64,000 nucleotides of DNA from Kofleriaceae bacterium (GCA_020633495.1 JACKDR010000001.1:310105-374104), one strand, 5' to 3'; numbered from the stretch's first letter, positions 25,691 to 30,649 are shown. Numbers and translations are program-made. The notes: generated by a model not told the origin, from the sequence alone.

Positions 25691-26284
25691 GTGTTCTTGG
25701 CTGATCTACCCCAGACCGACGACCGGATCGCGGCGGCCGCCCGTGGCGACCGCGCCGCCGCGGCCGAGGTGTGCCGGGAGATCCTGCCGCGGGTGCGCAA
25801 CCTGGTCCGCTACCTGGTGCGCGGCGATCAGATCGCCGACGACATCGCGCAGGAGGCGCTGATCGCGGTGCTGCGCGGCCTGGGCAGCTACCGCGGCGAG
25901 GGCCGCTTCGAGGCCTGGGTCGATCGCATCGCCGCGCGCGCCACGTTCGCGGCGCTGCGCCGGCTCCGCGGCGAGCGCGGTCGCCTCGAGGCGCCGGATC
26001 CCGAGGCGGTCGAGCGCGCCCGCGCCGACACCGACCCGGGGCTGGGCGCCGGCAACAGCCCGGGCGCCGGCGACCTGCTGCTGCGGCGCCAGCTCGCCGA
26101 CCTGCTCGACCAGCTGCCGGGCGAGCAGCGCGAGGCGCTGGTGCTGCACTTCAGCGCCGGCATGACCGTCCCCGAGATCGCCGAGCTGACCGGCGCTCCG
26201 TTCGAGACCGTGCGCAGCCGCCTGCGGCTCGCCAAGCAGACACTGCGCGATGCGCTGGGAGGCCGCGATGCGCGACGAACCTGA
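25691..26284 (+). CDS. ECF (extracytoplasmic function) sigma-70 factor
   Basis: GTG 25691. Region 2 ...DIAQEALIAVLRGLGSYRGEGRFEAWVDRIAARA and region 4 LPGEQREALVLHFSAGMTVPEIAELTGAPFETVRSRLRLAKQTLR. Confidence 0.85.
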   Translation: MFLADLPQTDDRIAAAARGDRAAAAEVCREILPRVRNLVRYLVRGDQIADDIAQEALIAVLRGLGSYRGEGRFEAWVDRIAARATFAALRRLRGERGRLEAPDPEAVERARADTDPGLGAGNSPGAGDLLLRRQLADLLDQLPGEQREALVLHFSAGMTVPEIAELTGAPFETVRSRLRLAKQTLRDALGGRDARRT

Positions 26285-27215
26285 GGTCCACGAGGCCGAC
26301 CTGGAGCGGCTGTTCCGCGTCGACGGCGCCGGACCGGCGCTGCCGGCATCGGCGGCCCGCGCCGACGCGATGATCGCCGCGGCGCTCGACGCCGTGCTCG
26401 GGCCGATGCCCGGCGGCGGCGGCGGCGGAAGCGGCGGAAGCGGTGGCGGCGGCGCGGGCAGCGGCGTCGGCGGCACCGTCGGCGTCAAGGCGGCGTGGGT
26501 CGCGGCGATCGCCGCGGTGCTGGCGGGCGGCGCGGTGGTGGCGTACCTGGTGCTGCGGCCGCCGGCGGCGACGAAGGTGGAGGTGCCGGCGATCGAGGTG
26601 GCGGAGGTCGGGACGGGATCGGAACCGGCGTCGGGCACGGGCACGGGCACGGGCACGGGCACGGGATCAGAACCGGCGTCGGGCACGGGCACGGGCACGG
26701 GATCAGAACCGGCGTCGGGCACGGGCACGGGATCAGAACCGGAGGCCGACTACCCGGAGATCGAGGTCGATCCCGAGCCGCGGCGCGCCACCCACGATCG
26801 CCCGCGCCACGACGACCTCGACGACGCCGGGGTCGACGATCTGCTGGCGCGCGCCAACCAGGCGCGCGGCGCCCGCAAGTGGCGCGACGCCGACGCCCTC
26901 TACGCCCGCGTCGTCGCCGAGCACGGCGACAGCGCGTCGGCGCAGGTCGCGCTGGTCGCGTCGGCCGCGCTGCACCTCGAGCACCTCGGCGACGCCCGCG
27001 GCGCGGCGCGACGCTATCGCGACGCGCTCGGGCGACGGGCTCGCGGCGGCGTCGCCGAGGAAGCCCGCTACGGCCTCGCCGAGGCCTACCGCGCGCTCGG
27101 CGACGCCACCGCCGAGGCCGGCGCGCTCGACGACTTCCTCGCCCACCACGCCGACTCGCCGCTGGCCGACCGCGCCCGCGCCCGTCGCGCCCAGCTGGAC
27201 GCCGGCCCCCGGTGA
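26268..27215 (+). CDS. Anti-sigma factor: N-terminal cytoplasmic segment, one TM helix, a repetitive GSEPASGTG linker and a TPR-like C-terminal domain
   Basis: Overlaps the sigma gene by 17 nt (ATG 26268; alternative ATG 26250). TM helix VKAAWVAAIAAVLAGGAVVAYLVL. The coding tandem repeat (GGATC(A/G)GAACCGGCGTCGGGCACGGGCACGGG...) runs from about 26620 to 26750. C-terminus: ALYARVVAEHGDSASAQVALVASAALHLEHLGDARGAARRYRDAL (TPR-like). The stop overlaps the next gene (GTGA at 27212-27215). Confidence 0.75.
   Translation: MRDEPEVHEADLERLFRVDGAGPALPASAARADAMIAAALDAVLGPMPGGGGGGSGGSGGGGAGSGVGGTVGVKAAWVAAIAAVLAGGAVVAYLVLRPPAATKVEVPAIEVAEVGTGSEPASGTGTGTGTGTGSEPASGTGTGTGSEPASGTGTGSEPEADYPEIEVDPEPRRATHDRPRHDDLDDAGVDDLLARANQARGARKWRDADALYARVVAEHGDSASAQVALVASAALHLEHLGDARGAARRYRDALGRRARGGVAEEARYGLAEAYRALGDATAEAGALDDFLAHHADSPLADRARARRAQLDAGPR
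26620..26750 (+). repeat. Coding tandem repeat (about 30-nt unit with a (CACGGG)n core) encoding GSEPASGTGTG(TGTG) repeats inside the anti-sigma linker
   Basis: Read directly from the sequence and its translation. Confidence 0.8.
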
Positions 27216-28462: not shown

Positions 28463-28489
28463 CGCCGGCGGCGTGACAGCCGGCGCCGG

Positions 28490-30649
28490 GTGTCGCAAGC
28501 TCGCGACGTGACCGGGACCGGACCCGCGCGCGGCCGCGTCGCGACCCAGATCGTCCTGCCCGCGGCGGCGGTCCTGCTCGCGGGGCTGATCGCGACCTGG
28601 ATCGCGGTCGGCCTGCTCCGCGAGCGCGAGCGCGGCCGCGAGCGCGTCGAGGTCGCCCGGCGCGCGACCGACCTGGCGGCGCGGATCGAGCAGGCGTTCG
28701 TCGTGCCGCTGCAGGCGGTCTACGGCCTCGCCGCCCACCTCCACGCCGTCGACCTCGACCTCGACGCCGCCGGCTTCCGCCGCTTCGCCGCCGACGCGGT
28801 GACCCGGCAGCCGTCGATCTACGCGCTCGAGTGGGCGCCGGTGGTGACCGACGCCGAGCGCGCCGCGGTCGAGGCGCGGGCCCAGGCCGAGGGCCAGCCG
28901 CGGTGGGAGATCAAGGAGCGCGCCCCCGGCGGCGGCTGGCAGCGCGCCGCGACCCGCCCCTGGTACGTGCCGCTGCGGTTCGCCGAGCCGCCCAACGACG
29001 CCCTGGGCTTCGACCTGGTGTCGCTGGCCGATCGCATGGCCCACGTGATCCGGTCGCGCGACGCCGCGCTGACGATCGCGACCGAGCGGCTGCAGCTGGT
29101 CGAGGATCCCCCCGGCGTGTGGTCGGTCGCGGTCTACGATCCGGTGTGGCGCGGCGGCACCGCGCCGGCCGGCCGGGACGCGCGCGCCGCGGCCCTGGCC
29201 GGCTTCGCGATCGCCGTCTTCCGGGTCCGGCCGGTGATCGAGGGCGCGCTCGAGGACGCCCACCTCGACGATCTCGACGTGGCGCTGATCGACGCCAGCG
29301 GCAGCCCCGGCAACCGCGTGCTGTGGGAGAGCTCGGCCGGTGCGGCCGACCGGGCCGCCGCCGCGTCGCCGCCGGCGGGCGGCGAGTTCCACTTCCTCGA
29401 CCGCACCTGGCAGGTCACGGTCGCCCATCACGACGCCGGCGCGCCGGCGCTGGCCGCGTCACGCCTGGCCCTCTACGGCGGCCTGCTGATCAGCGCGCTG
29501 GCGGCGGCCCTGTTCGTCGGCTTCCGGGTGGCGCGGCGCCTCGAGCGCAGCGCCGCGTCGGCGCGGCGCCTCGGCCAGTACCAGCTGCTCGAGCCGATCG
29601 GGCGCGGCGGCATGGGCGTGGTCTACGCGGCCCGCCACGTCCTGCTGCGCCGCCCCACCGCGGTCAAGCTGCTGGCGCCCGACGCCACCGACGCCGCCAG
29701 CCTCGAGCGCTTCACCCGCGAGGTCCGCCTCACCTCCGAGCTGACCCACCCCAACGTCATCGCGGTCTACGACTACGGCCACAGCCCCGACGGCGTCTTC
29801 TACTACGCGATGGAGCTGCTCGACGGCATCACGCTCGACGAGCTGATCCGCGTCGACGGCCCGCAGCCGGTGGCGCGCACGGTCCACTTGATCCGGCAGC
29901 TGACCTCGGCGATCGCCGAGGCCCACGGCCGCGGCCTGGTCCACCGCGATCTCAAGCCGGCCAACCTGATGCTGGTCGAGCGCGGCGGCGATCCCGACTT
30001 CCTCAAGGTCCTCGACTTCGGCCTGGTCAAGCGCCTCGAGGGCGCGGAGATCGGCGATCTCGACGACGACGCGGCCGGCGACGCGACCGACGCCGACGCC
30101 GACGCCGCCCGCCGCCCGCGCGCCGCGACCGGCAGCGACGACGGACGACCGCGGCGGCTGACCGGCGCCGGCGTCCTGTTCGGCACGCCCGGGTTCTCGG
30201 CGCCCGAGGCGGTGCTCGGCGAGCCCACCGAGGCCGCCGCCGACGTCTACTCGATCGGCGCGGTCTGGTACGACCTGCTGGCGGGGCGGCCGCCGTTCAA
30301 GGGCGCCAGCGCCCGCGCCGTCTCCTACCAGCAGCTCACCGCGACCGTGCCGGCGCCGTCGCGGTGGCGCCCCGAGCGCGGCGACCACGTCGACGCGGTG
30401 CCGGCCGAGATCGACGCGCTGGTGCTCCGCTGCATGGACCGCAAGCCCGGCGCCCGGCCCACCGCCGCCGCGCTGCTCGACGCCATCGAGGCCCTGGCGA
30501 CGCCGCCGTGGACCCGGGCCCAGGCGCGGCTGTGGTGGGCGACCCACGGCGCCGCGGTCCGGTCGGTGGCGAAGCTGCGGCTCGAGCGCCCGGCGTCGGA
30601 CGAGCGCGCCTCGCTCGACGTCGACCTGCACCGTCGCGACGCACGCTGA
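28490..30649 (+). CDS. Membrane Ser/Thr protein kinase with a periplasmic CHASE sensor domain (TM, CHASE, TM, Hanks kinase)
   Basis: GTG 28490. TM1 IVLPAAAVLLAGLIATWIAVGLL. Periplasmic about 280 aa with CHASE signatures (SIYALEWAPVVTDAERAAVEARA...WYVPLRFAEPPNDALGFDLVSL...AVYDPVW). TM2 LYGGLLISALAAALFVGF. Kinase: GRGGMGVVYAARH...AVKLL...HRDLKPANLM...DFGLVKR...GTPGFSAPE. Confidence 0.85.
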   Translation: MSQARDVTGTGPARGRVATQIVLPAAAVLLAGLIATWIAVGLLRERERGRERVEVARRATDLAARIEQAFVVPLQAVYGLAAHLHAVDLDLDAAGFRRFAADAVTRQPSIYALEWAPVVTDAERAAVEARAQAEGQPRWEIKERAPGGGWQRAATRPWYVPLRFAEPPNDALGFDLVSLADRMAHVIRSRDAALTIATERLQLVEDPPGVWSVAVYDPVWRGGTAPAGRDARAAALAGFAIAVFRVRPVIEGALEDAHLDDLDVALIDASGSPGNRVLWESSAGAADRAAAASPPAGGEFHFLDRTWQVTVAHHDAGAPALAASRLALYGGLLISALAAALFVGFRVARRLERSAASARRLGQYQLLEPIGRGGMGVVYAARHVLLRRPTAVKLLAPDATDAASLERFTREVRLTSELTHPNVIAVYDYGHSPDGVFYYAMELLDGITLDELIRVDGPQPVARTVHLIRQLTSAIAEAHGRGLVHRDLKPANLMLVERGGDPDFLKVLDFGLVKRLEGAEIGDLDDDAAGDATDADADAARRPRAATGSDDGRPRRLTGAGVLFGTPGFSAPEAVLGEPTEAAADVYSIGAVWYDLLAGRPPFKGASARAVSYQQLTATVPAPSRWRPERGDHVDAVPAEIDALVLRCMDRKPGARPTAAALLDAIEALATPPWTRAQARLWWATHGAAVRSVAKLRLERPASDERASLDVDLHRRDAR

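Follow-up and report, generated by a model that had tools for sequence, protein, structure and literature searches.

The interval that runs from an ECF sigma factor gene to a major vault protein (MVP) homologue is best read as separate units joined by rearrangement, namely, an ECF module, a receptor kinase, and the MVP gene, and we put the probability of this reading at about 0.7. These genes lie within a 64-kb stretch of DNA, referred to here as the window, and their positions are collected in Table 1.

Table 1. Positions of genes and sequence elements in the window, with the basis for each assignment
Feature	Position	Strand	Basis
CheA-like Hpt/HATPase_c protein gene	20861..22408	-	Pfam Hpt 7.1e-8, HATPase_c 1.3e-13
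FHA-domain protein gene, weak PilZ-like C terminus	22481..23359	+	Pfam FHA 5.8e-15
ECF-type promoter-like motif P1 (TGACCCGATCG...TCTCGAT)	23403..23432	+	6 nt upstream of GH18 ATG
GH18 glycosyl hydrolase gene, first of ECF module	23439..24554	+	Pfam Glyco_hydro_18 1.8e-16
Gene X, conserved secreted protein	24612..25639	+	tblastn with L091 orthologue
ECF-type promoter-like motif P2 (TGACCCGATCG...CCTCGAT)	25652..25681	+	9 nt upstream of sigma start
ECF (group 4) sigma factor gene	25691..26284	+	Pfam Sigma70_r2, r4_2, Sigma70_ECF; TIGR02937
Putative single-pass anti-sigma factor gene	26268..27215	+	Position, TM, orthologue alignment
Tandem coding repeat GSEPAS(GT)n	26609..26742	+	TRF; anti-sigma linker
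DUF7305/pAdhesive_15 lipoprotein gene	27212..28462	+	Pfam; lipobox; AF2; Foldseek
Receptor Ser/Thr kinase gene	28490..30649	+	Pfam CHASE 2.1e-31, Pkinase 3e-41
Promoter-like block upstream of MVP (CGCGCACGCCGGTTGCACCG ... GCGACGCATC)	30724..30763	+	Conserved in the window, L003, and L015
Major vault protein homologue (context gene, outside sigma module)	30797..33205	+	Pfam

The sigma, anti-sigma, and DUF7305 genes belong to a conserved five-gene module, whose other members are gene X and a lipoprotein gene of the glycan-binding or GH18 type. The sigma factor is a 197-residue protein built of sigma2 and sigma4 domains only (Pfam Sigma70_r2, 1.4e-11; Sigma70_r4_2, 7.1e-13); it scored 75.5 bits against TIGR02937, where the cutoff is 42.9, and a profile search of the whole protein returned no match to region 3 or 1.1. 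As the initial annotation had noted, the anti-sigma gene begins within the last 17 nt of the sigma gene (ATG at 26268, stop at 26282-26284) and shares a GTGA with the lipoprotein gene at 27212-27215; a GGGAGG ribosome-binding site precedes the anti-sigma ATG. Orthologues of the sigma factor with 55 to 66% identity occur in 17 metagenome loci carrying DUF7305, and the order sigma, anti-sigma, DUF7305 is kept in every one of them, which strongly supports the earlier reading of a three-gene operon. The sigma stop also lies at or downstream of the nearest candidate anti-sigma start in 16 of these 17 loci.

The putative anti-sigma factor comprises a conserved cytoplasmic N terminus of about 45 residues, a Gly-rich stretch, a transmembrane helix, a variable linker, and a periplasmic domain. 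Transmembrane prediction found one hydrophobic segment (residues 78 to 96), as befits a single-pass protein, and the C-terminal ~125 residues form a conserved, TPR-like domain (TPR_6, 7e-5, under the Pfam cutoff). Residues 1 to 61 matched no Pfam family at E<=1, zf-HC2 and RskA-type families included, no HxxxCxxC motif was seen in the protein sequence, and the profile-recognizable N-terminal domain that marks class I and ZAS anti-sigma factors was not found. Because no profile recognizes the N terminus, the case for an anti-sigma role depends on where the gene lies, on the topology of the protein, and on its conservation.

The two remaining genes of the module lie upstream. The GH18 protein has a hydrophobic N terminus (residues 4 to 22, a signal peptide) and an LPGC sequence, and is probably a lipoprotein; the equivalent position in orthologous loci is held by a gene for a CBM5/12 (chitin-binding) lipoprotein. 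Gene X, for which a profile search found no Pfam family, is frameshifted in the window near positions 24944-24950: the intact 341-residue orthologue from L091 aligned by tblastn in two different reading frames, one covering 24699-24950 and the other 24944-25621. The CBM5/12 gene and gene X precede sigma wherever the DNA of orthologous loci is long enough, which for gene X amounts to 14 of 14 loci.

A strict ECF-type motif, TGACCCG-N18-CTCKAT, matched twice in the 64-kb window compared to the 0.08 matches expected by chance, and both matches (P1 and P2) precede module genes. Related loci totaling 450 kb gave 15 strict matches, of which 14 fell directly upstream of sigma orthologues. The motif seen at P1 also lies before the CBM5/12 gene that occupies the equivalent position in L091 and, if its -10 part is relaxed, before this gene in four other loci (L090, L101, L102, and L104). 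P2 is probably an autoregulatory promoter that yields a very short or absent leader, and the gene overlap together with the conserved promoter-like motif points to the coupled anti-sigma factor and autoregulation by which ECF systems are recognized. Scans for the same motif upstream of the kinase and of MVP found none.

These features suggest that the region from about 23403 to 28462 is a self-contained ECF module for cell envelope signaling, conserved across Kofleriaceae, in which one ECF-type motif would serve the glycan-active lipoprotein gene and gene X and a second would serve sigma, anti-sigma, and DUF7305. We propose that the anti-sigma factor would hold sigma through its conserved ~45-residue N terminus, while the TPR-like domain would sense an envelope or glycan-related cue, possibly via the co-expressed lipoproteins. 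Once released, sigma would activate its own operon along with the glycan-active gene.

RpoE-RseA, SigW-RsiW, and CarQ-CarR of Myxococcus are pairs of an ECF sigma factor and a single-pass anti-sigma factor with co-transcribed envelope proteins. The module resembles such pairs in its two-domain (sigma2 plus sigma4) sigma factor, in a translationally coupled membrane protein with a short cytoplasmic N terminus and an extracytoplasmic sensor domain, in the conserved promoter-like motif before the sigma operon, and in the presence of secreted protein or lipoprotein genes. It differs in that no known anti-sigma profile recognizes the N terminus of its anti-sigma factor, in the TPR-like nature of the periplasmic domain, and in what is conserved alongside the pair: a DUF7305 beta-helix lipoprotein, gene X, and either a GH18 or a CBM5/12 protein.

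Linkage of sigma to DUF7305 extends to about 40 metagenome loci. Among distant DUF7305 homologues (31 to 38% identity), 15 have an ECF sigma homologue 2 to 3 kb upstream, and a few others with comparable upstream DNA gave no detectable ECF sigma. No CHASE or MVP gene was found near the sigma-DUF7305 linkage in the ~40 loci, or in any of the 76 loci of the whole set.

The independence of the module bears directly on whether the ECF sigma factor could control everything from sigma to MVP as a single regulon or operon, with an envelope signal driving both kinase and MVP. All of the genes share a strand, and only 27 nt separate the stop of DUF7305 from the start of the kinase, a tight junction that recurs with the same 27 nt in L003. 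Since no clear or recognizable intrinsic terminator was found in this gap, transcription of the sigma operon may read through into the kinase. However, the ECF motif is missing upstream of kinase and MVP, the ~40 module loci carry neither gene, L015 carries the kinase-MVP pair without the module, and the gap before MVP includes a conserved element specific to MVP, so that we consider a single regulon very unlikely. The same comparative data go against treating the whole block as one unit, as had been suggested. The gap itself measures 147 nt, given the MVP ATG at 30797, rather than the 148 bp first reported, and the co-orientation and proximity of kinase and MVP hold; a search of this gap found no consensus promoter or terminator, a scan that is uninformative at 75% GC.

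Comparison with L015 helps to place the boundaries of the units. A CheA-like gene ~72% identical to that of the window occupies the same relative position in L015 and serves as the left-hand synteny anchor. The FHA protein, which also matches Yop-YscD_cpl (1.2e-11) and PilZ (9.8e-4) in Pfam, is 63% identical to its L015 counterpart, and the window and L015 share the CheA-like (-)/FHA (+) arrangement upstream and the kinase-MVP pair downstream. In L001/L015 the gene order is FHA, CHASE kinase, MVP, all co-oriented, and the sigma module occupies exactly the FHA-kinase gap in the window, a gap of 102 nt in L015. The difference may reflect insertion in the lineage of the window and L003 or loss in L015.

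This arrangement raises a different explanation, in which the sigma module was merely inserted into a lineage-specific signaling cassette made up of FHA, CHASE kinase, and MVP. The kinase would sense an extracellular ligand and phosphorylate MVP or an MVP regulator, FHA would act as adaptor, and how a vault-like particle is assembled or expressed would thus be under kinase control. The short gaps and shared orientation of the three genes in L015 are consistent with this idea. The kinase-MVP pair has also been kept in the window, L003, and L015 even though their kinases share just ~60% identity and the 5-kb module is variously present or absent. A further 14 loci have other Ser/Thr kinases beside MVP, and in most of them a different kinase of ~380 residues adjoins MVP or lies within three genes of it (immediately adjacent in 8). 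Persistence of the adjacency at this level of kinase identity, together with other kinases at MVP, hints at some functional tie and so speaks against the reading of fully separate units.

Set against this, kinase-MVP adjacency was confined to the window, L002/L003, and L001/L015, or 3 of 79 MVP loci, all in the closest subclade. A scan anchored on MVP found CHASE within 10 kb in only two other distinct loci, leaving 76 of the 79 without it, and the adjacency was not conserved beyond the closest clade. One MVP gene with 74% identity lacks the CHASE kinase, the gene upstream of it being unrelated and divergent, and CHASE kinase homologues at 40 to 44% identity have varied neighbors, none of them MVP. 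Kinases are abundant in myxobacterial genomes, most of the adjacency represents inherited synteny rather than independent events, and MVP has a conserved upstream block of its own. We therefore regard the cassette as unlikely. Synteny of kinase and MVP in two relatives agrees in part with the initial annotation and, with the CHASE domain supported by its profile, leaves that annotation unrefuted; its proposal of a signaling input to MVP is nonetheless a guess, because the synteny is restricted, the module is independent, and MVP has its own upstream element; any link from kinase to MVP is speculative.

Under the preferred reading of separate units, MVP would stand alone with its own conserved upstream element. 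The block upstream of MVP is conserved in the window, L003, and L015, where the rest of the intergenic region is unalignable, and its GGTTGCACCGG core also lies upstream of MVP in L013, where the upstream kinase is absent. This conserved block close to the gene suggests that MVP may have its own promoter. The protein is one of the bacterial MVP homologues of Myxococcales with shoulder and vault repeat domains (MVP_shoulder, 1.8e-26; Vault_3, 2.6e-7) and includes a band-7-like region; at least 120 homologues were found at 63 to 79% identity, mostly in Kofleriaceae/Myxococcales. A preprint on Myxococcales MVP homologues did not analyze genomic context (bioRxiv 10.1101/872010), which proved highly variable here, with kinase adjacency confined to subclades. 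The module, receptor kinase, and vault-protein gene come from a soil myxobacterium.

The kinase of the window, for its part, has the makings of a stand-alone receptor, in which a periplasmic ligand bound to CHASE would control a catalytically competent Hanks kinase. The FHA protein, encoded next to the kinase in L015, is a plausible partner that would bind phospho-threonine. Assignment of the CHASE domain passed the Pfam check by a wide margin (PF03924, 109.6 bits versus a cutoff of 25; residues 91 to 276, covering profile positions 3 to 186 of 189). Transmembrane helices at residues 25 to 43 and 326 to 344 flank this periplasmic domain, and the kinase domain, which begins at residue 364, retains intact Hanks motifs: GRGGMG (GxGxxG), AVK (AxK), HRDLKPAN (HRDxKxxN), DFG, and APE. 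Its long acidic activation-loop insert exceeds that of most family members by ~33 residues.

Work on rice CHARK claims that the combination of CHASE with a Ser/Thr kinase exists in no other organism (PMC7814049). The earlier description of CHASE as seldom paired with Hanks kinases is true of the literature but not of the databases, where 119 of the 120 best relatives, from Myxococcota and Acidobacteriota, share the architecture. Rice CHARK and Arabidopsis AHK4 likewise place an extracytoplasmic CHASE domain between two transmembrane helices ahead of a cytoplasmic kinase. CHARK also has Ser/Thr kinase output, but the protein described here comes from a bacterium and carries a kinase domain of the bacterial Hanks type rather than a lectin-RLK-like one. 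AHK4 is a CHASE histidine kinase receptor, and its likeness is one of sensor-domain sequence, its CHASE domain (3t4j) being the closest solved structure (E 7.4e-5).

The lipoprotein of the sigma operon had been labeled a DUF4097-like adhesin, a name that does not fit: DUF4097 (PF13349) was unmatched even at E<=1, and the protein matches DUF7305 (3.9e-16; 59.9 bits, cutoff 27) and pAdhesive_15 (3.9e-7; 30.7 bits, cutoff 23.8). A lipobox, AAGC, follows a hydrophobic segment at residues 19 to 37, and the protein is Cys-rich, with nine invariant Cys. AF2 modeled it as an all-beta solenoid (mean pLDDT 79.7), and a Foldseek search of the PDB with this model matched ice-binding proteins, the best being the two-domain 5uyt (E 4.6e-5, TM-score 0.23); because TM-scores are this low, the similarity is only local and at the level of fold class. 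The predicted structure is a Cys-rich double right-handed beta-helix like that of ice-binding proteins. This predicted helix and an above-cutoff profile match are shared with DUF3494-fold ice-binding-like proteins, such as 5uyt, and with pAdhesive_15, whereas the protein here is lipid anchored, rich in conserved Cys, and equipped with a C-terminal DUF7305 domain. Nothing in the analysis points to ice binding.

The expanded coding repeat noticed earlier in the anti-sigma linker reads [GSEPAS(GT)5][GSEPAS(GT)3][GSEPAS(GT)2]GSEPEA, and some of its copies are identical at the DNA level. TRF resolved it as 2.4 copies with a period of 36 nt (100% identical) and as 2.0 copies with a period of 48 nt (95%). 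In the alignment, GSEPAS(GT)n was missing from all 17 anti-sigma orthologues, whose hypervariable linkers differ in length and are mostly Pro/Ala-rich. A repeat unique to this genome within a hypervariable linker fits a recent expansion, which would probably have arisen by slippage in a spacer free of constraint on its length and sequence.

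The initial annotation read the genes leading to the major vault protein (MVP) homologue as one block running from a sigma factor to MVP, and most of what it observed proved correct. The genes are indeed co-oriented, but the signalling link that it drew to MVP rests on adjacency in one small clade. Judged from gene order, the co-orientation arises because a self-contained module sits within an FHA-kinase-MVP array (see the table, compiled from a codon-bias gene call and an ORF list at a window G+C of ~75%). In a close relative (loci L001/L015, GCA_942492525.1), a minus-strand CheA-like gene is followed by plus-strand FHA, CHASE receptor Ser/Thr kinase, and MVP genes, with a 102-nt gap between FHA and kinase and no sigma module; the CheA-like and FHA genes of the window are ~72% and 63% identical to those of this relative. 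The five genes of the module occupy exactly the interval from the FHA stop (23359) to the kinase start (28490) in the window. A second close relative (L002/L003, GCA_011526095.1) carries anti-sigma, DUF7305, CHASE kinase, and MVP genes in that order, so this arrangement is common to it and the window, and the module was either inserted in the window or lost in L015. In practical terms the region is now mapped more cleanly; none of this overturns current understanding.

Features of the region and the evidence for their assignment
Feature	Position	Strand	Remarks
CheA-like gene	20861-22408	minus	upstream of plus-strand series
FHA gene	22481-23359	plus	upstream of plus-strand series
Strict motif copy	23403-23432		6 nt before GH18 ATG
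GH18 gene	23439-24554	plus	Pfam GH18, 1.8e-16
Gene X	24612-25639	plus	
Strict motif copy	25652-25681		before sigma
Sigma gene	25691-26284	plus	sigma domains by Pfam
Anti-sigma-like gene	26268-27215	plus	
Lipoprotein gene	27212-28462	plus	DUF7305 + pAdhesive_15
Receptor kinase gene	28490-30649	plus	CHASE + Pkinase
MVP gene	30797-33205	plus	MVP_shoulder 1.8e-26 (Pfam)

Three minus-strand genes (33233-37830) converge on MVP from its 3' side, encoding a phosphoesterase/phospholipase-C-family protein (Pfam 1.3e-54), a PKD+TPR protein, and a 678-aa product that has no Pfam match and an oddly low GC at the first codon position.

The three-gene operon proposed in the initial annotation emerges strengthened. 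The anti-sigma ATG at 26268, preceded by GGGAGG, lies within the sigma gene, whose TGA stop is at 26282-26284, giving the 17-nt overlap originally noted, and the lipoprotein GTG at 27212 overlaps the anti-sigma TGA at 27213-27215. Aligned DUF7305 homologues, used as the query of a metagenome scan, brought up 76 loci; 17 of them carried sigma orthologues (55-66% identity), all in the order sigma, anti-sigma, DUF7305. For 16 of these, the nearest candidate anti-sigma start fell at or upstream of the sigma stop, at offsets of -17, -8, or -1 nt. In 15 loci the DUF7305 homologue is distant (31-38% identity) and has an ECF sigma homologue 2-3 kb upstream; no such sigma was found in a few further distant loci for which comparable DNA upstream was available. 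CHASE and MVP matches were absent from all 76 loci. In the window and 24 related loci, folding the 70-nt stretch that follows the DUF7305 stop revealed no consistent terminator hairpin; a scan of 25200-33400 for sigma-70 promoters and intrinsic terminators gave no matches and is uninformative at this G+C.

Because its N-terminus matches no Pfam family and no anti-sigma profile, we infer an anti-sigma role for the second operon product from position, topology, and conservation. Aligned orthologues share a conserved N-terminus of ~45 residues, a Gly-rich stretch, a single transmembrane helix, and a conserved, TPR-like C-terminal domain of ~125 residues; the linker from the helix to the C-terminal domain varies in length and is mostly Pro/Ala-rich. 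The coding repeat reported in this gene is real: 26609-26742 encodes [GSEPAS(GT)5][GSEPAS(GT)3][GSEPAS(GT)2]GSEPEA, with a 36-nt period, 2.4 copies, and 100% identity in Tandem Repeats Finder, and among the aligned orthologues it occurs in the window only. The third product had been called a DUF4097-like adhesin. DUF4097 was rejected, being absent from the Pfam search even at E<=1, which instead gave DUF7305 (3.9e-16) and pAdhesive_15 (3.9e-7). An AlphaFold2 model (mean pLDDT 79.7) is an all-beta solenoid, and ice-binding proteins rank highest among its PDB matches, with the two-domain 5uyt first (E 4.6e-5, at a TM-score of only 0.23); "adhesin-like beta-helix" is therefore a fair description, but "DUF4097" is not. 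A literature search on DUF7305 found no papers.

Aligned DNA upstream of the sigma orthologues contains TGACCCG-N18-CTC(T/G)AT, with 9-13 nt between its end and the start codon. There are exactly two strict copies in the 64 kb of the window, where 0.08 would be expected by chance, and no copy of the motif lies before the kinase or MVP; 450 kb of related loci contain 15 strict copies, of which 14 stand directly before sigma. The fifteenth precedes a CBM5/12 (chitin-binding) lipoprotein gene in related locus L091, and in L090, L101, L102, and L104 the CBM5/12 gene has this -35 element upstream, paired with a -10 that is slightly relaxed. This gene, followed by gene X, which encodes a conserved secreted protein, is found upstream of sigma in all orthologous loci with enough DNA. 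On the position of these two genes and the shared motif, the conserved unit is [P - glycan-active lipoprotein - X][P - sigma - anti-sigma - DUF7305], where P is the candidate promoter motif; in the window, the first position is held by a Pfam-confirmed GH18 enzyme. A modest by-product worth keeping is thus the delimitation of a five-gene ECF module in Kofleriaceae, together with its candidate promoter motif. The predicted regulon is small, comprising a GH18 or chitin-binding lipoprotein, gene X, and the DUF7305 beta-helix lipoprotein; it places two domains of unknown function in a regulatory setting that can be tested.

Two further TGACCCG sites, at 47427 (minus) and 58443 (plus) of the window, were dismissed as intragenic, antisense, and without a -10 at the right spacing. 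By eye, the sequence GVDFDIE gives the L091 CBM5/12 protein a GH18-like C-terminal domain, but this found no support from Pfam, a BLASTP comparison with the window GH18 reached only E 0.084, and the domain is not assigned to GH18. L101 has two inverted CBM5/12 lipoprotein gene copies (1893-2867 and 3551-4525), both faced by ECF-motif-like sequences. Gene X of the window is split across two reading frames near 24944-24950, and its orthologues are intact at 341 aa; the break reflects either true pseudogenisation or misassembly of a repetitive, GC-rich stretch.

The CHASE assignment of the receptor kinase was upheld by Pfam over nearly the whole profile (E 2.1e-31, 109.6 bits). The kinase domain (Pkinase, 3e-41) retains all catalytic motifs, and CHASE lies between transmembrane helices at residues 25-43 and 326-344, which assign it to the periplasm. 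Among solved structures, the CHASE domain of Arabidopsis AHK4 comes nearest to the sensor region (E 7.4e-5). The initial annotation considered CHASE an unusual partner for such kinases. This holds for the literature, where the rice CHARK paper states that no other organism has a protein combining CHASE with a Ser/Thr kinase (PMC7814049), but not for the databases: PF03924 and PF00069 occur together in 119 of the 120 best relatives of the kinase, so that in bacteria the architecture is common, though uncharacterised. These relatives come from Myxococcales, Thermoanaerobaculia, and Vicinamibacteria, and several are source-named 'serine/threonine protein kinase/CHASE1-domain containing sensor protein'. 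Recognition of this large uncharacterised receptor family is a second modest by-product, and searching for its ligands would be reasonable. The activation loop has an acidic low-complexity insert (residues ~515-550, window 30020-30130) that exceeds the length seen in most relatives by ~33 residues; the two closest relatives and the Acidobacteriota homologues have shorter inserts.

A gap of 147 nt separates the kinase from MVP, whose ATG is preceded by a GAGGGGG ribosome-binding site. An MVP-anchored genome scan yielded 80 loci; with the window, 79 distinct loci were comparable for MVP and its neighbours. Kinase and MVP genes are neighbours elsewhere in L003 and L015, but none of the other distinct loci has CHASE within 10 kb of MVP. 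At an MVP of 74% identity, the upstream neighbour is a divergent DUF4349 gene instead. Clustering of neighbours found no family consistently with MVP, and three CHASE-kinase homologues on long contigs had unrelated, variable neighbours. MVP neighbourhoods are highly fluid, and adjacency to the CHASE kinase is unusable as evidence of MVP regulation.

The kinase-MVP pair persists in three genomes despite kinase identities of only ~60%. A non-CHASE Ser/Thr kinase of ~380-420 aa adjoins MVP in 8 loci (+1 position in L011, L014, L018, L019, L026, and L055; -1 and divergent in L004 and L008) and lies within three genes in most of 6 more. Pair survival and these other kinases hint at some link, but weakly, because most of this is inherited synteny in kinase-rich genomes. 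We consider it unlikely, at roughly one chance in eight, that in this Kofleriaceae subclade the CHASE kinase and its FHA/PilZ-like neighbour couple an extracellular small-molecule signal to MVP phosphorylation or expression. If true, a prokaryotic vault homologue would for the first time have a known regulatory input, and the CHARK-type receptor of plants would have its first characterised counterpart in bacteria. A literature search for MVP together with myxobacteria found no papers.

An intergenic block before MVP (30724-30763) is conserved among the window, L003, and L015, and its core, GGTTGCACCGG, also lies upstream of MVP in L013, where no kinase is upstream, suggesting that MVP has its own promoter. 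The MVP-upstream core CGGTTGCACCG did not recur before the kinase or FHA genes, and folding of the kinase-MVP intergenic region was not significant (z = -1.4). Many MVP orthologues (L008, L010, L019, L023, L024, L026, L053, and L080) have a sigma-54-like TGG-N9-TGC element ~30 nt upstream of the ATG (-29 to -34), found in 10 of 60 group-A loci versus 1.9 in shuffles, often with TGCTCC...GGAGCA palindromes further upstream. Such sequences suggest enhancer-binding-protein control of those orthologues; the window MVP lacks the element and has its different conserved block instead.

Many Kofleriaceae genomes contain a second MVP paralogue of 49-52% identity (L058, L062-L066, L070, L073, and L074). 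Immediately 5' of it on the same strand, in 9 loci, is an RtcB RNA-ligase homologue (Pfam RtcB 5e-72), and most of these loci have a divergent NtrC-type sigma-54 activator one gene further upstream. Eukaryotic vaults are ribonucleoprotein particles, which makes an RNA-repair enzyme beside a vault homologue intriguing. MVP homologues of 56-69% identity also occur in Achromatium (Gammaproteobacteria; L048 and L082), implying horizontal transfer of the myxobacterial-type MVP.
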